In this document: one piece after another, positions 5,017 through 59,070 of the stretch | How the letters are laid out: each line of letters starts with the position of its first letter | How positions within the stretch are numbered: the first letter of the stretch is position 1 | Source: Escherichia coli | GTDB taxonomy: Bacteria > Pseudomonadota > Gammaproteobacteria > Enterobacterales > Enterobacteriaceae | DNA: 64,000 bases | Strand: one strand, 5' to 3' | Assembly: GCF_013315695.1 (NCBI RefSeq) | Contig: NZ_CP054353.1 | The notes under the pieces: model-generated | Database searches by the model: none | What the model saw: the letters and a program-made list of their open reading frames with translations, nothing else | What the model was told of the DNA's origin: nothing | Program-made: the position numbers and the translations under genes

Positions 5017-6111
5017 ATGGGCGCTTATCTGATTCGCCGTCTGTTGCTGGTGATCCCAACGTTATGGGCGATTATCACTATCAACTTTTTCATCGTGCAA
5101 ATTGCGCCTGGCGGTCCGGTCGACCAGGCCATCGCCGCCATTGAGTTTGGTAATACTGGTGTATTACCCGGTGCAGGCGGTGAAGGTGTTCGCGCTAGCC
5201 ATGCACAAACGGGCGTCGGTAATATCAGCGACAGTAATTACCGTGGCGGACGCGGATTAGATCCAGAAGTGATCGCCGAGATCACTCATCGCTACGGTTT
5301 CGATAAGCCGATCCACGAACGTTACTTCAAAATGCTCTGGGACTACATCCGTTTTGATTTTGGCGACAGCCTTTTTCGCAGCGCCTCGGTGCTGACGCTG
5401 ATTAAAGACAGTCTGCCGGTCTCCATCACCCTCGGATTGTGGAGCACGCTGATTATCTATCTGGTGTCGATTCCGTTAGGCATTCGCAAAGCTGTTTATA
5501 ATGGGAGCCGTTTTGACGTCTGGAGTAGTGCATTTATCATCATCGGCTACGCCATTCCGGCCTTTTTGTTTGCCATCCTGCTGATTGTCTTCTTCGCGGG
5601 CGGCAGCTATTTCGACCTGTTCCCTCTGCGCGGCCTGGTTTCCGCTAACTTTGATTCGCTGCCGTGGTATCAGAAAATCACCGATTATCTGTGGCATATC
5701 ACGCTGCCGGTGCTGGCGACTGTGATTGGTGGCTTTGCAGCGCTGACCATGCTGACAAAAAACTCATTCCTTGATGAAGTGCGTAAGCAATACGTGGTGA
5801 CGGCACGTGCGAAAGGGGTAAGTGAAAAAAATATTCTCTGGAAACATGTGTTCCGCAACGCCATGCTGCTGGTGATTGCCGGTTTTCCGGCGACGTTTAT
5901 CAGCATGTTTTTTACCGGCTCGCTGCTGATTGAGGTGATGTTTTCACTCAATGGTCTTGGCTTACTGGGCTACGAAGCGACCGTCTCGCGCGATTATCCT
6001 GTAATGTTTGGTACCTTGTATATTTTCACCCTGATTGGCCTGCTGCTGAATATTGTCAGTGATATCAGCTATACGCTGGTCGATCCGCGTATAGATTTTG
6101 AGGGACGCTAA
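5017..6111 (+). CDS. yejB: ABC transporter permease YejB
   Basis: 364-aa multi-TM ORF starting directly after the yejA stop; permease signature region. Confidence 0.9.
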
Positions 6112-7135
6112 TGCCGCGACTCAGCCCCGTCAATCAGGCCCGTTGGGCGCGTTTTCGCCATAACCGTCGCGGCTACTGGTCGTTATGGATTTTCCTCGTC
6201 TTGTTTGGTTTGAGTTTGTGTTCTGAACTTATCGCCAACGATAAACCGTTGCTGGTACGTTATGACGGCAGTTGGTATTTCCCGTTGTTGAAAAACTACA
6301 GCGAAAGCGATTTTGGTGGCCCGCTGGCAAGTCAGGCTGATTATCAGGACCCGTGGCTGAAACAACGGCTGAAAATAACGGCTGGGTACTGTGGGCACCG
6401 ATTCGCTTTGGTGCTACCAGTATCAACTTTGCTACCGATAAGCCCTTCCCTGCTCCACCCTCCCGGCAAAACTGGCTGGGAACGGATGCCAATGGCGGCG
6501 ATGTGCTGGCGCGCATTCTCTATGGCACGCGGATCTCAGTTCTGTTTGGCCTGATGCTGACCCTCTGCTCCAGCGTGATGGGCGTGTTGGCGGGGGCGCT
6601 ACAAGGCTATTACGGCGGTAAAGTCGATCTCTGGGGGCAACGTTTTATTGAAGTATGGTCGGGGATGCCGACGCTGTTTTTGATTATTTTACTTTCCAGC
6701 GTCGTACAGCCTAACTTCTGGTGGCTGTTGGCAATTACGGTCTTGTTTGGCTGGATGAGTCTGGTCGGCGTGGTGCGGGCGGAGTTTTTACGTACCCGTA
6801 ATTTCGACTACATCCGTGCGGCGCAGGCGCTTGGCGTCAGCGATCGCAGTATCATCCTGCGTCATATGTTGCCAAATGCCATGGTCGCTACCCTCACCTT
6901 TTTACCGTTTATTTTATGTAGTTCGATAACCACCCTGACCTCACTCGATTTCCTCGGCTTCGGTCTGCCGCTCGGTTCACCGTCACTCGGCGAACTGCTG
7001 TTACAAGGGAAAAATAACCTTCAGGCCCCGTGGCTTGGGATCACCGCCTTCTTGTCGGTGGCGATATTGTTGTCTTTGCTGATCTTTATTGGTGAAGCCG
7101 TCCGCGACGCATTTGATCCTAATAAGGCGGTGTAG
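6111..7135 (+). pseudogene. yejE: ABC transporter permease YejE, disrupted by an apparent 1-bp deletion (frameshift) near 6372-6377
   Basis: Two overlapping ORFs in different frames (6111..6554 and 6353..7135). The first carries the N-terminus then a junk tail; the second carries the permease body from ENNGWVLWAPIRF. 87 + 254 codons = 341 aa, the expected YejE length. Confidence 0.75.
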
Positions 7136-44196: not shown

Positions 44197-44289
44197 CGCT
44201 ATCATCATTAACTTTATTTATTACCGTCATTCATTTCTGAATGTCTGTTTACCCCTATTTCAACCGGATGCCTCGCATCCGGTTTTTTT
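44197..44289 (+). ncRNA. micF: MicF antisense sRNA (represses ompF)
   Basis: Sequence gctatcatcattaactttatttattaccgtcattcatttctgaatgtctgtttacccctatttcaaccggatgcctcgcatccggtttttttt ending in a terminator hairpin; divergent from ompC. Confidence 0.9.
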
Positions 44290-44601
44290 TACCCTTCTTT
44301 ACACACTTTTCATTATTCTGTGCTACCACAGAAAAACTATAACGCTTGTTAACTATTTCACAAATAATTAACATCAGCATAATTTCCAGCAATCTTCGTT
44401 TATTTGCAATTAATTTCGTTGGGCTTTTTGTAGGTTATTTGTACAGCAAAATGGCGCTTGTACATCTATTTCCCCCAATGCAGGATGATAAATATCACGG
44501 GAGAATAGAAAATCATCAATCAGGTAAGAGTCTGGAATTTCACACTGTACCCTTTATACTGCCCTATCACTTCGCGAAGTTTTAACAGGTCATAAACACG
44601 A

Positions 44602-47944: not shown

Positions 47945-48025
47945 CCTGTAGGCCAGATAAGACGCGTTAGTGTCTTATCTGGCATTTGCACTGAATGCCA
48001 GATGCGGCGTAAACGCCTTATCCGT
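47945..48025. repeat. REP elements between convergent rcsB and rcsC
   Basis: Imperfect palindromes ggccagataagacgcg...tcttatctggc and gccagatgcggcgtaaacgccttatccg. Confidence 0.7.
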
Positions 48026-48026
48026 C

Positions 48027-50876
48027 CTACGATTCCCGCGATTTCCTGACCCTCTCGGCATATACCGTCAGCGTCTGTTTTATCACATCCAGCGTTACCG
48101 GCTTCGACAGGCAGCTGTCCATACCGGACTCCAGACACCGCTGCTTCTCTTCAGCCAACGCATTAGCAGTTACTCCGATTACCGGCAACGTCAGTCCCAA
48201 CTGACGAATGCGTTGCGTCAAGCGGTAACCATCCATATTTGGCATGTTGACGTCGCTAAGCACGATATCAATATGATTCTTGCTAAGTACATTAAGCGCA
48301 TCGACGCCATCATTCGCGGTTTTACATTGATAACCCAACGATCCCAACTGATCTGCCAGCAGACGCCGGTTAATCGGATGATCATCCACGACCAGAATCA
48401 TCATATCGTCGTTATCGCTGACCGCTTTGTCCGTCGACGGCAGAGCGTTAGCAGGATCATCGCTCTCCATCTCGATCAAATAAATACGCGCCAACAATGC
48501 CGGTAGCTCATGCGGTGCAGCCACACTGTGTACCCACTCCCCTGGCGCTTTCTCCAGCGGAATACCAATATGGCGACGACAGAAGGTCACTACCGCTCTA
48601 CCCTGCCATTTTTTGCTCACTACCTCGTCAGTGATTAACACATCTTCGGGAGTCGGTTCCTGCCCTTCGTATGTTGTAACGACGATGCCGCTGCGCTGCA
48701 AACTGGTTTCCAGGAACTGACAGAGCGACGCATTGCGGACCGCCAGCCAGCAGCGTTTACCACTCAACCCTTCCACGCCTTTTTTCTGCGGGTACTGAGC
48801 GCCGTACAACGGAATACGCACGGTAAACTGGCTGCCTATTCCCGGTTCTGAATCTACCGAGATGTCGCCGTCCATCATGCTGATCAGTTTTTCACAAATC
48901 GCCAGACCCAGACCGGTCCCCTGGAAGTTTCGCTGTACGCCCGTTCCGACCTGGAAGAAGGGATCAAACAAGCGCACGACTTCTTTCGCCGGAATCCCCA
49001 CGCCGGTATCGCGAACACGGATAGAGAGATAATCGCCATCAGCGCGAACTTGCAAAACTATACAGCCGGTATCGGTGAATTTTATGGCGTTACTCAACAG
49101 GTTGGAGATGACCTGCTGTAAACGCATCGGGTCGCCATTTAAGGCCACTGGCACATCCGGTTCAATAAAGCAGTACAAGCCTAACTGCTTGCGTACCACC
49201 AGCGGTAAATAGTTGGCGGTGATGTGGTTCATCACTTCACGCGGTGAAAACTCACGCGGTTCGATCTTCAACTGTTCTGATTCAATTTTCGAGAAATCGA
49301 GAATATCGCTGATAATTTTCAACAACAGGCTGGAAGAGTTGTTCATTGCCGTCACCAGACGATCGACGCCTTTCGGTAACTCTTTGGTTTGCAACAGATC
49401 CAGGTTACCGATAATGCCATACAGCGGCGTTCGCAGCTCATGACTGACGGTGGCAAGGAACATCGATTTTGACTGGCTCGCCTGTTCCGCTGCTTGTGCC
49501 ATCTCCTGCAACGACTCTTCCATCTTCACGCGCGAAGAAACATCCACCAGCACACAAATGGCCACGTTTTCATTACGATAGCGCGAATGGACGAAGCTGA
49601 TTTGCAGATTGGTATTGTTGCTGGTCAGGACATCAACAAAATTGACCTGCTGCCCACAGATAATTTGTGTCAGCCGTTGGCGATCCTCATGCGTAAGCAT
49701 ATTGAGATAGGTATGCGCCAGTTCGTTACTTAAAATATTGACGCCATCAGCGGTACGCAATATGCAGATACCCACTGGCGCGGAGGCGACAATCTTGCGA
49801 TTAAACTGCTCATGTTCTTCCAGTCGCAGGGCGTCGCTTTCCGCCGGAATGAAAATACGCCGCTCGTACATCCGCGCGAGAGTAAACAATGCAGCTCCGG
49901 CAAGCACATTCAGCAAAATTGCGTTAAGGATCAACATGCGAATGCGTTCCAGCACCTTATCAACCGGCACCGAATACACGATGCTTAGCGATGAGGGTGG
50001 CAGATTTTTCTTCAGCACCAGCTCCCGGAACCCTTCCGTATAGCCAAACCAGGAGCGTTCCTGCATCCAGCGAGGATCGCCCTTAATTTTGCTTTCTGGT
50101 CCGGTAAGCGAAATCAGGGTATGACCATTTTCATCAAGAATGGTAACCCCCATCGGCAACGTACCAGGCAAGAAAAAGTTCTCCATCCGGATGGTCTGCT
50201 CGACACCCAAAAGCGCCTGCAACCGGTTCGCCAGATAAACTGGCGTCAAGGCGTAAAAATACCCGACGCCAGGGCGCGGACCTTCGCTGATCCAGTAGAG
50301 GTTACTGCCGCTATCATCTTGTGGTGCATTTCGATATTTATTAATGCGTTCATGCAACGCTTTTAGCGCGGTATCGCGTTCCACTGGCATATCACGCAGA
50401 CCGAAATTGGCCATGCAGAGGTTATCGCTGCCGATTAAAAATACCCGGTTGAGATCGTAAGCCGCAGAAAAATTATCGCGCCAGTAGCGCATAAACCACG
50501 CCAATGACTCCAGAGAACCTCGCCAGGTGTTACTCATTGCGGAACAATCAGAGTCAGCAAACAGCGGTTCAAACGCAGGCACATCCGTCTGCGTTTCTCG
50601 TCCACGCGGGGAAAGCACACCGTTTTCTGCCGATAAGCGATTTTCGGCGATGTACTTCAGCTCTTTCATCACATCAGAGGTGCGTTGAATAAAGCGCTGA
50701 GCCTGATCGGAACTCAGATTAAATTCCTGACGAATTTCCGATTCTCGCTGATGTAACGCATTAACGATGTAAAAAACGGATGAAAAAGCAATCAACAGCC
50801 AGAGCACTAACGCCAATGCTCTGAACATGTAGCGCGAGGCTTTCAGGGTTGTACGAAAAGAAGCAAGGTATTTCAA
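48027..50876 (-). CDS. rcsC: Hybrid sensor histidine kinase RcsC
   Basis: 949-aa ORF with TM-flanked periplasmic domain, HisKA/HATPase region and C-terminal receiver domain. Confidence 0.93.
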   Translation of the reverse strand: MKYLASFRTTLKASRYMFRALALVLWLLIAFSSVFYIVNALHQRESEIRQEFNLSSDQAQRFIQRTSDVMKELKYIAENRLSAENGVLSPRGRETQTDVPAFEPLFADSDCSAMSNTWRGSLESLAWFMRYWRDNFSAAYDLNRVFLIGSDNLCMANFGLRDMPVERDTALKALHERINKYRNAPQDDSGSNLYWISEGPRPGVGYFYALTPVYLANRLQALLGVEQTIRMENFFLPGTLPMGVTILDENGHTLISLTGPESKIKGDPRWMQERSWFGYTEGFRELVLKKNLPPSSLSIVYSVPVDKVLERIRMLILNAILLNVLAGAALFTLARMYERRIFIPAESDALRLEEHEQFNRKIVASAPVGICILRTADGVNILSNELAHTYLNMLTHEDRQRLTQIICGQQVNFVDVLTSNNTNLQISFVHSRYRNENVAICVLVDVSSRVKMEESLQEMAQAAEQASQSKSMFLATVSHELRTPLYGIIGNLDLLQTKELPKGVDRLVTAMNNSSSLLLKIISDILDFSKIESEQLKIEPREFSPREVMNHITANYLPLVVRKQLGLYCFIEPDVPVALNGDPMRLQQVISNLLSNAIKFTDTGCIVLQVRADGDYLSIRVRDTGVGIPAKEVVRLFDPFFQVGTGVQRNFQGTGLGLAICEKLISMMDGDISVDSEPGIGSQFTVRIPLYGAQYPQKKGVEGLSGKRCWLAVRNASLCQFLETSLQRSGIVVTTYEGQEPTPEDVLITDEVVSKKWQGRAVVTFCRRHIGIPLEKAPGEWVHSVAAPHELPALLARIYLIEMESDDPANALPSTDKAVSDNDDMMILVVDDHPINRRLLADQLGSLGYQCKTANDGVDALNVLSKNHIDIVLSDVNMPNMDGYRLTQRIRQLGLTLPVIGVTANALAEEKQRCLESGMDSCLSKPVTLDVIKQTLTVYAERVRKSRES

Positions 50877-51555
50877 AGGGGCGAAGCTCCGCCTCAGGTG
50901 ACCGATGGAGTGTGGTTAAGGTAGCGGTAAAAGCGTGTTACCGCAATGTTCTCTCTTCTCTGGAATATGATACACCGCCGAGAAATCATCACCTTAACCT
51001 CTGATAATCGTCATATACCGGACAAGACTAGTGGATTTCAGCATGCATTATATGAAGTGGATTTATCCACGCCGCTTACGCAATCAAATGATTCTGATGG
51101 CAATCCTGATGGTCATTGTCCCAACGCTTACTATTGGTTATATCGTAGAAACAGAAGGACGTTCAGCAGTCTTATCTGAAAAAGAGAAAAAACTTTCTGC
51201 CGTGGTCAACCTGCTTAATCAGGCGCTAGGCGATCGCTATGATCTCTACATCGACTTACCGCGTGAGGAGCGTATCCGCGCATTAAATGCAGAACTTGCC
51301 CCCATTACCGAAAATATCACTCACGCCTTCCCTGGCATCGGCGCTGGTTATTACAACAAAACGCTGGATGCGATAATCACCTACGCGCCTTCAGCGCTAT
51401 ATCAGAATAATGTGGGCGTTACCATTGCCGCAGATCACCCTGGTCGCGAAGTCATGCGTACAAATACCCCTTTGGTTTATTCAGGCAGGCAGGTGCGCGG
51501 CGATATTTTGAATTCAATGATCCCCATTGAGCGTAATGGTGAAATCCTCGGCTAT

Positions 51556-51564
51556 ATCTGGGCC
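51556..51564. repeat. 9-bp target-site duplication of IS1 copy 2 (atctgggcc); second copy at 52333..52341
   Basis: Identical 9-mer directly flanks both IS1 ends; the repeat encodes I-W-A of AtoS. Confidence 0.88.
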
Positions 51565-51579
51565 GGTAATGACTCCAAC

Positions 51580-52083
51580 TTATTGATAGTGTTTTATGTT
51601 CAGATAATGCCCGATGACTTTGTCATGCAGCTCCACCGATTTTGAGAACGACAGCGACTTCCGTCCCAGCCGTGCCAGGTGCTGCCTCAGATTCAGGTTA
51701 TGCCGCTCAATTCGCTGCGTATATCGCTTGCTGATTACGTGCAGCTTTCCCTTCAGGCGGGATTCATACAGCGGCCAGCCATCCGTCATCCATATCACCA
51801 CGTCAAAGGGTGACAGCAGGCTCATAAGACGCCCCAGCGTCGCCATAGTGCGTTCACCGAATACGTGCGCAACAACCGTCTTCCGGAGCCTGTCATACGC
51901 GTAAAACAGCCAGCGCTGGCGCGATTTAGCCCCGACATAGCCCCACTGTTCGTCCATTTCCGCGCAGACGATGACGTCACTGCCCGGCTGTATGCGCGAG
52001 GTTACCGACTGCGGCCTGAGTTTTTTAAGTGACGTAAAATCGTGTTGAGGCCAACGCCCATAATGCGGGCTGTTGCCCGGCAT
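51580..52083 (-). CDS. insB: IS1 InsB reading frame (copy 2)
   Basis: 167-aa ORF identical to copy 1 InsB. Confidence 0.88.
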
Positions 52084-52277
52084 CCAACGCCATTCATGGC
52101 CATATCAATGATTTTCTGGTGCGTACCGGGTTGAGAAGCGGTGTAAGTGAACTGCAGTTGCCATGTTTTACGGCAGTGAGAGCAGAGATAGCGCTGATGT
52201 CCGGCGGTGCTTTTGCCGTTACGCACCACCCCGTCAGTAGCTGAACAGGAGGGACAGCTGATAGAAACAGAAGCCAC
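52002..52277 (-). CDS. insA: IS1 InsA protein (copy 2)
   Basis: 91-aa ORF identical to copy 1 InsA. Confidence 0.93.
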
Positions 52278-53642
52278 TGGAGCACCTCAAAAACACCATC
52301 ATACACTAAATCAGTAAGTTGGCAGCATCACCATCTGGGCCAATGAATTAACCGAAGATATTCGCCGCCAGGCCTGGAAAATGGATGTGAGGATTATCAT
52401 TGTGCTCACCGCCGGTTTGCTGATAAGCCTGCTGTTGATTGTCCTTTTCTCCCGTCGCCTGAGCGCCAATATAGATATCATCACCGATGGCCTCTCGACT
52501 CTGGCACAAAATATTCCCACTCGATTACCACAATTGCCCGGTGAAATGGGGCAAATCAGTCAGAGTGTTAACAACCTCGCCCAGGCACTGCGTGAAACGC
52601 GGACACTTAACGATCTGATTATTGAAAACGCTGCCGATGGCGTCATTGCCATTGACCGCCAGGGTGATGTAACCACCATGAACCCGGCAGCAGAAGTCAT
52701 TACTGGCTATCAACGTCATGAACTGGTAGGGCAGCCTTACTCCATGTTGTTCGACAATACTCAGTTCTACAGTCCAGTACTGGATACGCTGGAACATGGC
52801 ACCGAACATGTAGCACTGGAGATCAGTTTTCCAGGCCGTGACCGCACCATTGAACTCAGTGTCACGACCAGTCGTATTCATAACACGCACGGTGAAATGA
52901 TAGGTGCTTTGGTGATTTTCTCTGATTTAACTGCCCGCAAAGAAACCCAGCGCCGCATGGCGCAAGCAGAACGCCTCGCTACACTGGGTGAGCTGATGGC
53001 TGGCGTGGCGCATGAAGTACGTAATCCGCTAACGGCTATTCGTGGTTATGTACAGATCTTGCGCCAACAAACCAGCGACCCAATACATCAGGAATATCTG
53101 TCCGTAGTACTCAAAGAAATCGATTCAATTAACAAAGTTATTCAGCAATTGCTCGAATTTTCACGTCCACGCCACAGTCAATGGCAACAAGTCAGCCTCA
53201 ATGCATTGGTTGAAGAAACTCTGGTACTGGTACAAACCGCCGGCGTACAAGCGCGGGTCGACTTCATAAGCGAACTGGATAATGAATTAAGCCCGATTAA
53301 CGCCGATCGTGAACTGCTCAAACAGGTACTACTGAATATCCTGATCAATGCCGTCCAGGCTATCAGTGCACGAGGGAAAATTCGCATTCGAACCTGGCAA
53401 TACAGCGACTCACAACAGGCCATTTCGATAGAGGACAACGGCTGTGGCATTGATCTCTCGCTGCAAAAAAAGATCTTCGATCCCTTTTTCACCACCAAAG
53501 CCTCAGGAACCGGGCTTGGTCTGGCGTTAAGTCAACGCATCATTAATGCCCATCAGGGTGATATTCGCGTCGCCAGTTTGCCGGGCTACGGCGCAACCTT
53601 CACGCTTATTTTACCGATCAACCCGCAGGGAAATCAGACTGT

Positions 53643-55028
53643 ATGACTGCTATTAATCGCATCCTTATTGTGGATGATGAAGATAATGTTCGCCGTATGC
53701 TGAGCACCGCTTTTGCACTACAAGGATTCGAAACACATTGTGCGAACAACGGACGCACAGCATTACACCTGTTTGCCGATATTCACCCTGACGTGGTGTT
53801 GATGGATATCCGCATGCCAGAGATGGACGGCATCAAGGCACTCAAGGAGATGCGCAGCCATGAGACACGGACACCCGTTATTCTGATGACGGCCTATGCT
53901 GAAGTGGAAACCGCCGTCGAAGCGCTACGCTGCGGGGCCTTCGACTATGTTATTAAACCGTTTGATCTCGATGAGTTGAATTTAATCGTTCAGCGCGCTT
54001 TACAACTCCAGTCAATGAAAAAAGAGATCCGTCATCTGCACCAGGCACTGAGCACCAGCTGGCAATGGGGGCACATTCTCACCAACAGCCCGGCGATGAT
54101 GGACATCTGCAAAGACACCGCCAAAATTGCCCTTTCTCAGGCCAGCGTCTTGATTAGTGGTGAAAGCGGCACCGGGAAAGAGTTGATTGCCAGAGCGATT
54201 CACTACAATTCGCGGCGGGCAAAGGGGCCGTTCATTAAAGTCAACTGCGCGGCACTGCCGGAATCGTTGCTCGAAAGTGAACTGTTTGGTCATGAAAAAG
54301 GTGCATTTACTGGTGCACAAACCTTGCGTCAGGGATTATTTGAACGTGCCAACGAAGGTACTCTGCTCCTCGACGAAATTGGTGAAATGCCGCTGGTACT
54401 GCAAGCCAAATTACTACGCATTCTGCAGGAACGGGAATTTGAGCGGATTGGCGGCCATCAGACCATAAAAGTTGATATCCGCATCATTGCTGCCACCAAC
54501 CGCGACTTGCAGGCAATGGTGAAAGAAGGCACCTTCCGTGAAGATCTCTTTTATCGCCTTAACGTTATTCATTTAATACTGCCGCCTCTGCGCGATCGCC
54601 GGGAAGATATTTCCCTGTTAGCTAATCACTTTTTGCAAAAATTCAGTAGTGAGAATCAGCGCGATATTATCGACATCGATCCGATGGCAATGTCACTGCT
54701 TACCGCCTGGTCATGGCCGGGAAATATTCGAGAGCTTTCCAACGTTATTGAACGCGCCGTCGTGATGAATTCAGGCCCGATCATTTTTTCTGAGGATCTT
54801 CCGCCGCAGATTCGTCAGCCAGTCTGTAATGCTGGTGAAGCAAAAACAGCCCCTGTCGGTGAGCGTAATTTAAAAGAGGAAATTAAACGCGTCGAAAAAC
54901 GCATCATTATGGAAGTGCTGGAACAACAAGAAGGAAACCGAACCCGCACTGCTTTAATGCTGGGCATCAGTCGCCGTGCATTGATGTATAAACTCCAGGA
55001 ATACGGTATCGATCCGGCGGATGTATAA
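53643..55028 (+). CDS. atoC: Sigma-54-dependent response regulator AtoC
   Basis: 461-aa ORF with receiver domain, AAA+ sigma-54 activator core (GESGTGKE, GAFTGA) and C-terminal HTH; 4-bp overlap with atoS stop. Confidence 0.93.
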   Translation: MTAINRILIVDDEDNVRRMLSTAFALQGFETHCANNGRTALHLFADIHPDVVLMDIRMPEMDGIKALKEMRSHETRTPVILMTAYAEVETAVEALRCGAFDYVIKPFDLDELNLIVQRALQLQSMKKEIRHLHQALSTSWQWGHILTNSPAMMDICKDTAKIALSQASVLISGESGTGKELIARAIHYNSRRAKGPFIKVNCAALPESLLESELFGHEKGAFTGAQTLRQGLFERANEGTLLLDEIGEMPLVLQAKLLRILQEREFERIGGHQTIKVDIRIIAATNRDLQAMVKEGTFREDLFYRLNVIHLILPPLRDRREDISLLANHFLQKFSSENQRDIIDIDPMAMSLLTAWSWPGNIRELSNVIERAVVMNSGPIIFSEDLPPQIRQPVCNAGEAKTAPVGERNLKEEIKRVEKRIIMEVLEQQEGNRTRTALMLGISRRALMYKLQEYGIDPADV

Positions 55029-55223
55029 CGCCAAAACTTGCTATGCAGAAATTTGCACAGTGCGCAATTTTCTGCATAGCCGCTCATTCTCCTTATAAAC
55101 CCCCATCTAATTTATCCTTTTCTATTCAATTAGTTAAATAACAACCCCCAATAATCTCATTCTGGCACTCCCCTTGCTATTCCCTGACTGTACCCACAAC
55201 GGTGTATGCAAGAGGGATAAAAA

Positions 55224-55886
55224 ATGAAAACAAAATTGATGACATTACAAGACGCCACCGGCTTCTTTCGTGACGGCATGACCATCATGGTGGGCGGATT
55301 TATGGGGATTGGCACTCCATCCCGCCTGGTTGAAGCATTACTGGAATCTGGTGTTCGCGACCTGACATTGATAGCCAATGATACCGCGTTTGTTGATACC
55401 GGCATCGGTCCGCTCATCGTCAATGGTCGAGTCCGCAAAGTGATTGCTTCACATATCGGTACCAACCCGGAAACAGGTCGGCGCATGATTTCTGGTGAGA
55501 TGGACGTCGTTCTGGTGCCGCAAGGTACGCTAATCGAGCAAATTCGCTGTGGCGGAGCTGGACTTGGTGGTTTTCTCACCCCAACTGGTGTCGGCACCGT
55601 CGTAGAGGAAGGCAAACAGACACTGACACTCGACGGTAAAACCTGGCTGCTCGAACGCCCGCTGCGCGCCGACCTGGCGCTCATTCGCGCTCATCGTTGC
55701 GACACACTTGGCAACCTGACCTATCACCTTAGCGCCCGCAACTTTAACCCCCTGATAGCCCTTGCGGCTGATATCACGCTGGTAGAGCCAGATGAACTGG
55801 TCGAAACCGGCGAGCTGCAACCTGACCATATTGTCACCCCTGGTGCCGTTATCGACCACATCATCGTTTCACAGGAGAGCAAATAA
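55224..55886 (+). CDS. atoD: Acetate CoA-transferase subunit alpha AtoD
   Basis: 220-aa ORF; first gene of atoDAEB. Confidence 0.92.
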
Positions 55887-56536
55887 TGGATGCGAAACAA
55901 CGTATTGCGCGCCGTGTGGCGCAAGAGCTTCGTGATGGTGACATCGTTAACTTAGGGATCGGTTTACCCACAATGGTCGCCAATTATTTACCGGAGGGTA
56001 TTCATATCACTCTGCAATCGGAAAACGGCTTCCTCGGTTTAGGCCTGGTCACGACAGCGCATCCAGATCTGGTGAACGCTGGCGGACAACCGTGCGGCAT
56101 TTTACCCGGCGCAGCCATGTTTGATAGCGCCATGTCATTTGCGCTAATCCGTGGCGGTCATATTGATGCCTGCGTGCTCGGCGGTTTGCAAGTAGACGAA
56201 GAAGCAAACCTCGCGAACTGGGTAGTGCCTGGGAAAATGGTGCCCGGTATGGGTGGCGCGATGGATCTGGTGACCGGGTCGCGCAAAGTGATCATCGCCA
56301 TGGAACATTGCGCCAAAGATGGTTCAGCAAAAATTTTGCGCCGCTGCACCATGCCTCTCACTGCGCAACATGCGGTGCATATGCTGGTTACTGAACTGGC
56401 TGTCTTTCGTTTTATTGACGGCAAAATGTGGCTCACCGAAATTGCCGACGGGTGTGATTTAGCCACCGTGCGTGCCAAAACAGAAGCTCGGTTTGAAGTA
56501 GCTGCCGACCTGAATACGCAACGGGGTGATTTATGA
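55886..56536 (+). CDS. atoA: Acetate CoA-transferase subunit beta AtoA
   Basis: 216-aa ORF directly abutting atoD. Confidence 0.92.
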   Translation: MDAKQRIARRVAQELRDGDIVNLGIGLPTMVANYLPEGIHITLQSENGFLGLGLVTTAHPDLVNAGGQPCGILPGAAMFDSAMSFALIRGGHIDACVLGGLQVDEEANLANWVVPGKMVPGMGGAMDLVTGSRKVIIAMEHCAKDGSAKILRRCTMPLTAQHAVHMLVTELAVFRFIDGKMWLTEIADGCDLATVRAKTEARFEVAADLNTQRGDL

Positions 56537-57855
56537 TTGGTCGCATATCGCGTTTTATGACGCGTTTTGTCAGCCGGTGGCTTCCCGATCCACTGATCTT
56601 TGCCATGTTGCTGACATTGCTAACATTCGTGATCGCGCTTTGGTTAACACCACAAACGCCGATCAGCATGGTGAAAATGTGGGGTGACGGTTTCTGGAAC
56701 TTGCTGGCGTTTGGTATGCAGATGGCGCTTATCATCGTTACCGGTCATGCCCTTGCCAGCTCTGCTCCGGTAAAAAGTTTGCTGCGTACTGCCGCCTCCG
56801 CCGCAAAGACGCCCGTACAGGGCGTCATGCTGGTTACTTTCTTCGGTTCAGTCGCTTGTGTCATCAACTGGGGATTTGGTTTGGTTGTCGGCGCAATGTT
56901 TGCCCGTGAAGTCGCCCGCCGAGTACCCGGTTCTGATTATCCGTTGCTCATTGCCTGCGCCTACATTGGTTTTCTCACCTGGGGTGGCGGTTTCTCTGGC
57001 TCAATGCCTCTGTTGGCTGCAACACCGGGCAACCCGGTTGAGCATATCGCCGGGCTGATCCCGGTGGGCGATACTCTGTTCAGTGGTTTTAACATTTTCA
57101 TCACTGTGGCGTTGATTGTGGTGATGCCATTTATCACCCGCATGATGATGCCAAAACCGTCTGACGTGGTGAGTATCGATCCGAAACTACTCATGGAAGA
57201 GGCTGATTTCCAAAAGCAGCTACCGAAAGATGCCCCACCATCCGAGCGGCTGGAAGAAAGCCGCATTCTGACGTTGATCATCGGCGCACTCGGTATCGCT
57301 TACCTTGCGATGTACTTCAGCGAACATGGCTTCAACATCACCATCAATACCGTCAACCTGATGTTTATGATTGCGGGTCTGCTGCTACATAAAACGCCAA
57401 TGGCTTATATGCGTGCTATCAGCGCGGCAGCACGCAGTACTGCCGGTATTCTGGTGCAATTCCCCTTCTACGCTGGGATCCAACTGATGATGGAGCATTC
57501 CGGTCTGGGCGGACTCATTACCGAATTCTTCATCAATGTTGCGAACAAAGACACCTTCCCGGTAATGACCTTTTTTAGTTCTGCACTGATTAACTTCGCC
57601 GTTCCGTCTGGCGGCGGTCACTGGGTTATTCAGGGACCTTTCGTGATACCCGCAGCCCAGGCGCTGGGCGCTGATCTCGGTAAATCGGTAATGGCGATCG
57701 CCTACGGCGAGCAATGGATGAACATGGCACAACCGTTCTGGGCGCTGCCAGCACTGGCAATCGCCGGACTCGGTGTCCGCGACATCATGGGCTATTGCAT
57801 CACTGCCCTGCTCTTCTCCGGCGTCATTTTCGTCATTGGTTTAACGCTGTTCTGA
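56533..57855 (+). CDS. atoE: Short-chain fatty acid transporter AtoE
   Basis: 440-aa polytopic membrane ORF. Confidence 0.9.
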   Translation: MIGRISRFMTRFVSRWLPDPLIFAMLLTLLTFVIALWLTPQTPISMVKMWGDGFWNLLAFGMQMALIIVTGHALASSAPVKSLLRTAASAAKTPVQGVMLVTFFGSVACVINWGFGLVVGAMFAREVARRVPGSDYPLLIACAYIGFLTWGGGFSGSMPLLAATPGNPVEHIAGLIPVGDTLFSGFNIFITVALIVVMPFITRMMMPKPSDVVSIDPKLLMEEADFQKQLPKDAPPSERLEESRILTLIIGALGIAYLAMYFSEHGFNITINTVNLMFMIAGLLLHKTPMAYMRAISAAARSTAGILVQFPFYAGIQLMMEHSGLGGLITEFFINVANKDTFPVMTFFSSALINFAVPSGGGHWVIQGPFVIPAAQALGADLGKSVMAIAYGEQWMNMAQPFWALPALAIAGLGVRDIMGYCITALLFSGVIFVIGLTLF

Positions 57856-57885
57856 CGGCAACCCTACAGACAGAAGGAATATAAA

Positions 57886-59070
57886 ATGAAAAATTGTGTC
57901 ATCGTCAGTGCGGTACGTACTGCTATCGGTAGTTTTAACGGTTCACTCGCTTCCACCAGCGCCATCGACCTGGGGGCGACAGTAATTAAAGCCGCCATTG
58001 AACGTGCAAAAATCGATTCACTACACATTGATGAAGTGATTATGGGTAACGTGTTGCAAGCCGGGCTGGGGCAAAATCCGGCGCGTCAGGCGCTGCTAAA
58101 AAGCGGACTAGCTGAAACGGTGTGCGGATTCACGATCAACAAAGTGTGCGGTTCAGGTCTGAAAAGCGTGGCGCTTGCTGCACAGGCGATTCAGGCAGGT
58201 CAGGCACAGAGCATTGTGGCGGGGGGTATGGAAAATATGAGTTTAGCACCCTACTTACTCGATGCAAAAGCACGCTCTGGTTATCGTCTTGGAGACGGAC
58301 AGGTTTATGACGTAATCCTGCGCGATGGCCTGATGTGCGCCACCCATGGTTATCATATGGGGATTACCGCCGAAAACGTGGCTAAAGAGTACGGAATTAC
58401 CCGTGAAATGCAGGATGAACTGGCGCTACATTCACAGCGTAAAGCTGCAGCCGCAATTGAGTCCGGTGCTTTTACAGCCGAAATCGTCCCGGTAAATATT
58501 GTCACCCGGAAGAAAACCTTCGTCTTCAGTCAAGACGAATTCCCGAAAGCGAATTCAACGGCTGAAGCGTTAGGTGCATTGCGCCCGGCCTTCGATAAAG
58601 CAGGAACAGTCACCGCCGGGAACGCGTCTGGTATTAACGACGGTGCTGCCGCTCTGGTGATTATGGAAGAATCTGCGGCGCTGGCAGCAGGCCTTACCCC
58701 CCTGGCTCGCATTAAAAGTTATGCCAGCGGTGGCGTGCCCCCCGCATTGATGGGTATGGGGCCAGTACCTGCCACGCAAAAAGCGTTACAACTGGCGGGG
58801 CTGCAACTGGCGGATATTGATCTCATTGAGGCTAATGAAGCATTTGCCGCACAGTTCCTTGCCGTTGGGAAAACCCTGGGCTTTGATTCTGAGAAAGTGA
58901 ATGTCAACGGCGGGGCCATCGCGCTCGGGCATCCTATCGGTGCCAGTGGTGCTCGTATTCTGGTCACACTATTACATGCCATGCAGGCACGCGATAAAAC
59001 GCTGGGGCTGGCAACACTGTGCATTGGTGGTGGCCAGGGAATTGCGATGGTGATTGAACGGTTGAATTAA
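57886..59070 (+). CDS. atoB: Acetyl-CoA acetyltransferase (thiolase II) AtoB
   Basis: 394-aa ORF with thiolase active-site Cys regions (NKVCGSGL, C-terminal CIGGGQG). Confidence 0.95.

Follow-up and report, generated by a model that had tools for sequence, protein, structure and literature searches.

The sensor kinase gene atoS of an Escherichia coli strain (assembly GCF_013315695.1, contig NZ_CP054353.1) is interrupted by an IS1 element, and this simple insertion very probably disables AtoS, with the predicted loss of acetoacetate induction and possibly a polar effect on atoC. The stretch analysed, referred to as the window, comprises 64,000 nt of this contig, in which the gene order rcsC, atoS-atoC-atoDAEB is as expected for AtoS. 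In the window atoS is an IS1-interrupted pseudogene without an uninterrupted coding sequence; the gene starts at position 51043 and IS1 sits after codon 174. The interrupted region comprises the following features.

51043..51564, plus strand: 5' fragment of atoS, codons 1-174 (TM1 and nearly the whole periplasmic sensor region), with the same sequence as nt 1-522 of atoS of strain MS 21-1
51556-51564: left copy of the target-site duplication ATCTGGGCC, atoS codons 172-174 (I-W-A)
51565..52332, minus strand: complete IS1, 768 bp, antisense to atoS, with insA and insB' read on the minus strand
51565-51587: left IS1 end, IRR, terminal inverted repeat of 23 nt
51580..52083, minus strand: insB' frame, an ORF of 167 aa (NCBIfam NF033558, 145.6 bits, cutoff 100)
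52002..52277, minus strand: intact insA, 91 aa, GTG start, matching NCBIfam NF033558 (transpos_IS1) and the IS1/IS1595 zinc-binding domain
52020-52026, minus strand: A6C frameshift motif, AAAAAAC, at IS1 position 307
52298..52325, minus strand: promoter-like site within IRL, CTGCCA-16-TATGAT, reading inward to insA and away from atoC
52310-52332: right IS1 end, IRL, terminal inverted repeat of 23 nt
52333-52341: right copy of the target-site duplication ATCTGGGCC
52342..53646, plus strand: 3' fragment of atoS, codons 175-608 and the stop codon (TM2, HAMP, PAS, HisKA, HATPase_c)
52381..53646, plus strand: longest restart ORF, Met188-608, 421 aa, in frame and called by gene finders

Deletion of IS1 together with one copy of the repeat yields 1827 nt, comprising 608 codons and a stop with no internal stop codons, and this sequence equals atoS of MS 21-1 at every nucleotide. 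The reconstructed 608-aa protein is identical to WP_001571674.1 of MS 21-1 and MSB1_4I, and it matches the NCBIfam equivalog NF008468 with 998.7 bits (cutoff 646) over residues 1-607. Pfam assigns to it the HAMP (209-259), PAS (265-369), HisKA (389-451) and HATPase_c (496-600) domains, while the two transmembrane segments N-terminal of HAMP were read by eye from the sequence. The insertion point lies where the periplasmic domain ends, about 15 residues ahead of TM2. The N-terminal reading frame continues for 26 codons into IS1, up to a stop at 51643-51645, and encodes a chimeric product of 200 aa.

The element belongs to the IS1 family by its length, end sequences, 9-bp duplication, insA/insB' frameshift arrangement and near-identity to an annotated copy. 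Its terminal repeats are imperfect (78% complementary over 23 nt each), and the exact IRL and IRR sequences occur within the window only at its two IS1 copies, with 0 occurrences expected by chance. The direct repeats ATCTGGGCC are 100% identical at a spacing of 777. The IS1 ends, the duplication and the restored atoS frame taken together cannot be due to chance. Both the insA and insB' frames are open, and a -1 frameshift at the A6C motif produces the 232-aa transposase InsAB', identical in sequence to InsAB' of the MSB1_4I copy, which is annotated as ‘IS1-like element IS1A family transposase, programmed frameshift’ and differs from the atoS-borne element by 1 mismatch in 768. The site at 52298..52325 is positioned where IS1 is known to have its pIRL promoter. 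In length and terminal repeats (GGTGATGCTGCCAACTTACTGAT and GGTAATGACTCCAACTTATTGAT), as well as in the 9-bp duplication, the 91-aa insA, the insB' frame, the A6C motif and the 232-aa InsAB', the element resembles IS1 of the IS1A/IS1R type (768 bp) from E. coli K-12, Shigella and plasmid R100; the element itself shows no difference from these, and what is novel, within the collections searched, is solely its insertion site. Its open frames and complete ends, together with its being a new copy relative to close relatives, suggest that it is competent for transposition. The initial annotation, which had described a complete 768-bp IS1 at 51565..52332 with a perfect 9-bp target-site duplication after codon 174, and two in-frame halves of atoS totalling 608 aa, is thus borne out in its structural part by the exact span, both ends, the intact insA and insB' frames, the repeats on both sides and the 1827-nt reconstruction.

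The closest complete genome is that of MSB1_4I, with 6 SNPs relative to the window over approximately 63 kb. The window's second IS1, its IS4 and its yejE frameshift are present in MSB1_4I too, yet atoS is intact there. Downstream of the atoS-borne IS1 there are 0 nucleotide differences from MSB1_4I, and the gene order is collinear. The IS1/atoS junction, represented by the k-mers GGCTATATCTGGGCCGGTAATGACTCC and GGCAGCATCACCATCTGGGCCAATGAA, is absent from all 5,426 complete E. coli genomes queried, and the insertion is therefore private and recent. The uninterrupted site is present in 3,926 of these genomes, and about 28% of them lack the atoS segment queried. JGI metagenome contigs scanned for exact 30-mers of the junction yielded 0 matches, and neither of the chimeric N-terminal ORFs (200 aa and 204 aa) was present in the collection searched by exact look-up. 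A literature search on atoS with IS1 or as a pseudogene returned no report of the codon-174 allele, and the matches to atoS in papers on citrate use in the LTEE and on lactate evolution were point substitutions only. The insertion had initially been taken for a clean and probably recent one, with a comparison of close relatives proposed for dating it; this view is upheld by the 0 differences between the restored atoS and that of the relatives and by the intact gene in the nearest of them, only about 1 SNP per 10 kb away. Since relatives at this distance lack it, IS1 is probably active in the lineage at present.

Several candidate identities were rejected in the course of these searches. The only junction-query match covered at 100% in the 5,426 genomes, that of AMSCJX03, belongs to another insertion, which lies at codon 296. 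The 421-aa C-terminal ORF occurs in public assemblies (21-27 contigs), where it results from the nonsense alleles W186* and Q184* and not from IS1 insertions. A Shigella origin, suspected from the two IS1 copies and the frameshifted yejE, is contradicted by the short distance to MSB1_4I, an E. coli isolate of human origin, which amounts to only 6 SNPs per 63 kb, and by near-identity to MS 21-1.

The second IS1 copy of the window is located between yejO and narP, and is common to relatives, including MSB1_4I.

21471..22238, plus strand: second IS1, with its own 9-bp duplication GGTTGTAGT at 21462-21470 and 22239-22247

This copy is 100% identical to the atoS-borne element and could possibly have been its donor. 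Replicative intramolecular transposition from it was considered and rejected, as gene order is collinear with relatives and matched duplications are kept at both copies. Collinearity with MSB1_4I and the matching duplications retained by each copy point to a simple insertion, by which IS1 entered atoS with duplication of 9 bp of the target, in one strain of a human-associated E. coli lineage that includes MSB1_4I and MS 21-1.

All of the components of the ato system downstream of atoS are intact.

53643..55028, plus strand: atoC, intact, 461 aa (NCBIfam AtoC equivalog NF008469, 1004 bits, cutoff 714)
55040..55080: AtoC-binding inverted repeat upstream of atoD, two 20-bp arms, intact
55163..55178, plus strand: sigma-54 -24/-12 element TGGCACTCCCCTTGCT (TGGCAC-N5-TTGCT) of the atoDAEB promoter, intact, the sole match in the window
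55224-55886, plus strand: atoD, intact ORF with NCBIfam match
55886-56536, plus strand: atoA, intact ORF with NCBIfam match
56533-57855, plus strand: atoE, intact ORF with NCBIfam match
57886-59070, plus strand: atoB, intact ORF with NCBIfam match

The start of atoC overlaps the stop of atoS (ATGA), and the atoDAEB genes (55224..59070) are identical to those of MSB1_4I. The inverted repeat upstream of atoD is the target of AtoC (PMC3118216). The initial description of AtoSC as the system activating atoDAEB via sigma-54 agrees with that report and with the intact sigma-54 element and AtoC palindrome found upstream of atoD. The AtoC translation contains the receiver residue D55 and the wild-type residue I129. 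The substitution I129S makes AtoC constitutive (PMC5699524); a bypass of the kinase loss by constitutive AtoC was thus rejected for this known allele.

The gene atoS is almost certainly disabled by IS1. The N-terminal fragment would be unable to signal because it lacks the transmitter domains, and the part carrying HAMP, PAS, HisKA and HATPase has lost the promoter, the start codon and the first membrane anchor. Some truncated kinase might still be made from the restart ORF Met188-608. In the wild type, the kinase activates AtoC in response to acetoacetate; without AtoS, acetoacetate would no longer lead to AtoC phosphorylation, and the intact sigma-54 promoter of atoDAEB would be predicted to stay off. 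The predicted phenotype of the strain is the absence of induction of acetoacetate and short-chain fatty-acid catabolism. Such a failure of induction is expected by analogy with K-12, where a Pato reporter no longer responds to acetoacetate once atoS is knocked out (JW2213), nor does it respond in atoC- and atoSC- strains, with no other two-component system substituting (PMC7618054). The strain shares with the Keio mutant JW2213 (atoS) and with BW28878 (atoSC deletion) the loss of the kinase next to an intact atoDAEB promoter. However, the Keio allele is a designed replacement, whereas the allele in the window arose naturally, keeps both gene halves, may have a polar effect on atoC and might in principle be undone by precise excision of IS1; the strain backgrounds also differ. 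Wild-type K-12 is not known to use butyrate for growth. This substrate would be a poor test of AtoS loss, because the changes cited as broadening the use of fatty acids are constitutive mutations of atoC and fadR (PMC5699524).

The consequences for atoC depend on polarity. Transcripts from the atoS promoter would cross approximately 700 nt of untranslated IS1 RNA, antisense to insAB, and Rho-dependent termination in this RNA would be expected to lower expression of the 3' part of atoS and of the translationally overlapped atoC. The untranslated stretch 51645-51964, which follows the stop at codon 201, is C-rich and G-poor (C 0.31-0.35, G 0.21-0.25). IS1 is strongly polar in both orientations, as known from the classical gal and lac insertion mutants, and a literature search for a citable source on this point gave nothing useful. 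The insertion in atoS resembles those mutations in that IS1 occupies the first gene of a co-transcribed pair and downstream expression would be reduced in either orientation via Rho, but the ato locus differs from gal and lac in having a reported secondary atoC promoter (PMC1784093). A polar effect on atoC, which we infer here, is plausible and may be incomplete, with some AtoC still made, because that separate promoter, described as polyamine-inducible and active in lacZ fusions, has been reported. The insertion might then be kinase-null but non-polar, with atoC transcribed from its own promoter inside the 3' half of atoS, so that acetoacetate signalling alone is lost and unphosphorylated AtoC persists along with its reported antizyme role. 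Reporter fusions labelled patoC showed activity that putrescine induced whether or not atoSC was present (PMC1784093), and the whole 3' part of atoS, 1.3 kb upstream of atoC, is intact. On the other hand, the available text of that report gives no position for the promoter, a consensus scan of 52333-53643 revealed no sigma-70-like site on the plus strand, and the ATGA overlap suggests co-transcription and translational coupling of atoC with atoS. We consider a fully non-polar insertion possible, but on balance doubtful.

Much less probable is a locus that is not null at all, in which a hybrid or IS1-derived outward promoter at IRL drives Met188-608 (TM2-HAMP-PAS-kinase) together with atoC. The product would be a signal-blind and possibly constitutive kinase, with altered regulation of atoDAEB or motility. 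Fusion promoters formed by IS1 have been documented (PMC9330008); the hexamer TTGGCA at 52319-52324 in IRL, 8 bp from the end of the element, matches the -35 consensus at 5/6 positions; the in-frame 421-aa ORF is present and was called by gene finders; and overexpressed cytoplasmic AtoS (232-608) with AtoC raised fliA promoter activity (PMC10963238). Nevertheless, the -10 candidates AATGAA and ATGAAT match at only 3/6 positions, and in each of them the A of position 2 or the T of position 6 is missing. A consensus scan found no outward promoter at the right IS1 junction, where the best fusion candidate, agreeing at 8/12 positions with a poor -10, fell below the scan threshold and was rejected. 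The Shine-Dalgarno sequence before the ATG at 52381 is also weak (AGG at -11..-9), and the membrane topology of a Met188-608 fragment without TM1 is uncertain. The more specific proposal, that the -35 hexamer TTGGCA of IRL combined with flanking atoS sequence drives this fragment and atoC, with constitutive or rewired AtoC phosphorylation, is very improbable indeed; if it were true, selection, and not chance, might lie behind the same-orientation IS1 insertions in the ato loci of other strains. It is just as hard to credit that the insertion is an assembly artefact, or an event of laboratory culture or of a subpopulation rather than of the natural strain. The evidence does come from a single assembly, IS1 is multi-copy (approximately 19 matching places in MS 21-1), such repeats can be misplaced in assemblies, and IS1 also moves in culture. 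However, a misjoin would not leave in-frame atoS codons perfectly duplicated over 9 bp at the exact IS1 ends, with flanks collinear with relatives, and an event acquired in culture would still be a real insertion. The preferred reading therefore remains a simple IS1 insertion that inactivates AtoS.

Independent lesions of the ato locus, caused by IS1 or by nonsense mutation, are found in other E. coli strains. Natural IS1 lesions in the complete genomes of 2018-05-5CC, AMSCJX03, the EC812A1 group, GF31 and the 63-2 group have the same IS1 orientation relative to the ato genes and disrupt atoS, atoC or the atoC-atoD spacer; the shared orientation amounts to an apparent 6-of-6 pattern. Their sites differ, lying in atoS near codon 510, at atoS codon 296, at the 3' end of atoS, in atoC near codon 112 and just past the atoC stop. 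Several of them carry IS1-adjacent deletions removing atoC or atoDAEB, unlike the clean simple insertion at codon 174 found in the window. The lineage of the window is unrelated to these genomes, being about 98.6% identical to them versus about 99.99% to MSB1_4I.

E. coli can do without the ato system, which its strains often lack or carry in a broken form. The event described here is an ordinary, strain-specific one, namely one more IS-mediated loss of an accessory catabolic regulator, and opens no long-standing question. In the annotation of this genome atoS should be labelled as an IS1-interrupted pseudogene, and the insertion provides a clean, datable strain marker. The isolate would be expected not to sense acetoacetate, and the traits reported to be linked to AtoSC in K-12, motility and cPHB, may possibly be altered in it.

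The atoS gene (51043-53646) is interrupted by a complete IS1 in the minus orientation. A repeat search identified a 9-bp direct repeat, ATCTGGGCC, with copies at 51556-51564 and 52333-52341, and imperfect inverted repeats of 23 nt (51565-51587 and 52310-52332) enclosing an element of 768 bp. On the minus strand, the element encodes an intact InsA of 91 aa and an open insB' frame, and an A6C slippery site at 52020-52026 leads to an InsAB' of 232 aa; both the InsA and insB' parts match the IS1 transposase model NCBIfam NF033558. In the 64-kb window, IS1 end sequences occur only at this copy and at an IS1 at 21471-22238, the chance expectation being 0. The repeat search, end-sequence scan and transposase frames thus bear out the initial annotation of a complete 768-bp IS1 with a perfect 9-bp duplication. 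It is very unlikely that the insertion is an assembly artefact, given the perfect target duplication, in frame, at the exact IS1 ends.

With numbering from the start codon (ATG at 51043), the 9-bp duplication covers codons 172-174 (I-W-A), which places the IS1 after codon 174, as first proposed. Excision of the element and one repeat copy restores an ORF of 1827 nt (608 codons) with no internal stops, confirming that the halves are in frame and sum to 608 aa. The restored gene shows no base difference from atoS of the closely related E. coli MS 21-1, and its product reaches 998.7 bits with the AtoS equivalog model (cutoff 646 bits). The following Pfam domains were found in the restored AtoS:

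Residues 209-259, HAMP
Residues 265-369, PAS
Residues 389-451, HisKA
Residues 496-600, HATPase_c

From this layout, the break lies where the periplasmic region ends, immediately ahead of TM2. The kinase gene is physically split: the N-terminal ORF enters IS1 for 26 codons and stops at 51643-51645, and the longest in-frame ORF past the element starts at Met188 (52381..53646, 421 aa).

The window represents the E. coli yej-nap-ccm-ompC-rcsDBC-ato region, and everything downstream of the split atoS is intact. AtoC (461 aa; 1004 bits against its equivalog) carries D55 and the wild-type I129, the AtoC-binding palindrome (55040-55080) and the sigma-54 element TGGCACTCCCCTTGCT (55163-55178) are preserved, and the atoD, atoA, atoE and atoB ORFs are all uninterrupted.

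The split gene would yield no functional AtoS. The atoDAEB genes form a sigma-54 operon induced by acetoacetate (PMC3118216), and in K-12 a Pato reporter did not respond to acetoacetate in atoS, atoC or atoSC knockouts, no other system compensating for AtoS/AtoC (PMC7618054). Since the AtoC encoded here also lacks the known constitutive I129S change, the strain would be expected to have lost acetoacetate induction of atoDAEB. A truncated, signal-blind kinase made from the interrupted gene is possible but improbable; activity has been reported for cytoplasmic AtoS 232-608 when overexpressed with AtoC (PMC10963238).

The element may also affect atoC expression. Past the premature stop, the transcript would run untranslated through the remaining IS1, the first 320 nt of this stretch being rich in C and poor in G. 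Polarity of IS1 insertions in either orientation is a classical finding, and the overlap of the atoS stop and atoC start (ATGA) accompanies an apparent translational coupling of the two genes; together these features make polarity on atoC plausible. An outward fusion promoter at the IRL, the IS1 end facing atoC, is possible, as such IS1 promoters are known (PMC9330008) and the IRL carries TTGGCA 8 bp from the end of the element, but the best -10 candidates match at 3/6 positions only and the site falls below the promoter-scan threshold. AtoC may still be made, because Filippou et al. worked with a fusion to a separate atoC promoter that putrescine induces (PMC1784093). The earlier interpretation is therefore supported overall, with the polar effect on atoC kept as a caveat.

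Two complete IS1 copies are present in the window:

51565-52332, minus strand, within atoS
21471-22238, plus strand, between yejO and narP

The second has its own 9-bp duplication, GGTTGTAGT (21462-22247 including repeats). The copies are identical at 768/768 positions, oppositely oriented and about 29.3 kb apart. The yejO-narP copy is a plausible donor of the atoS element; any identical genomic copy could equally serve. Such an inverted pair could act as a substrate for inverting the nap-ccm-ompC-rcs segment. Matched duplications at each copy indicate that no inversion has occurred between them so far and, together with gene order collinear with that of the close relative MSB1_4I, point to simple insertion.

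Only five complete genomes show about 100% identity to a 25-kb flank query, the rest of E. coli being mostly at 95-99%. Between the window and the best of the five, MSB1_4I (human rectal swab, Australia), there are 6 single-base changes over the ~63 kb compared. MSB1_4I has an intact atoS and has in common with the window the yejO-narP IS1 (with one synonymous base different, at 21732), an IS4 beside tRNA-Pro and a yejE frameshift. A 160-nt atoS-IS1 junction query matched 0/5,426 complete RefSeq E. coli genomes, 3,926 of which carry the uninterrupted empty site; the junction 30-mer was not found in JGI metagenome contigs, nor the chimeric N-terminal ORF in a 15-billion-protein collection. The insertion is thus private to the strain and very recent, in agreement with the initial proposal of a recent event. 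A search of the accessible literature found no report of this allele.

Other features of the window were also noted. The yejE gene, encoding the permease component of YejABEF, a peptide/microcin C importer, consists of overlapping ORFs of 147 aa and 260 aa, which looks like a 1-nt frameshift; as it is annotated 'frameshifted' in MSB1_4I too, it is a pseudogene across the lineage rather than a sequencing error. The yejO autotransporter gene is an intact ORF (863 aa), while K-12 yejO is an IS5-disrupted pseudogene. The Rfam elements are in their expected places.

6111-7135, yejE
13309-13334, L25 leader, before rplY
17050-17126, tRNA-Pro(GGG)
17172-18518, minus strand, IS4 transposase ORF directly adjoining the tRNA gene, also in MSB1_4I
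18667-21258, yejO
44197-44290, MicF, upstream of ompC
47951-48027, naRNA4 (REP-derived element), between rcsB and rcsC

In E. coli, ato is an accessory system: a 200-nt atoS segment was matched in only 3,927 of the 5,426 complete genomes, leaving ~1,500 with no match, so that roughly 28% of them lack the ato regulatory locus. IS1 has also entered the locus independently in five other cases among complete genomes (2018-05-5CC, AMSCJX03, EC812A1, GF31 and 63-2), in several of which neighbouring deletions remove atoC or atoDAEB:

atoS near codon 510
atoS codon 296, with downstream deletion
atoS 3' end, with atoC deletion
atoC, with deletion
Just past the atoC stop, in 63-2 and four similar genomes (4209-4976 of L013, the 63-2 ato locus)

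A few bases separate the atoC stop from the 63-2-type element, and the AtoC-binding palindrome of the atoDAEB promoter follows directly downstream of it; these genomes also have an internal stop in atoC. With the window copy counted, all six elements point the same way with respect to the ato genes (6/6; two-sided p ~0.03), which may reflect chance, insertion bias or selection. Public Logan / ENA contigs carry the nonsense alleles W186* (TGG to TAG) and Q184* (CAG to TAG), at ~2996 in contigs L002-L005 and ~695 in L008, which split atoS into ORFs of 185 aa or 183 aa plus 421 aa. Added to the IS1 lesions, they indicate that natural loss of atoS is recurrent.

The interruption thus combines a known element, a known gene and a known kind of mutation and is not surprising, its interest being lowered by the accessory nature of the ato system and the recurrence of IS1 lesions and nonsense alleles elsewhere. 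Its value lies in annotation, in predicting phenotype and in marking the lineage.
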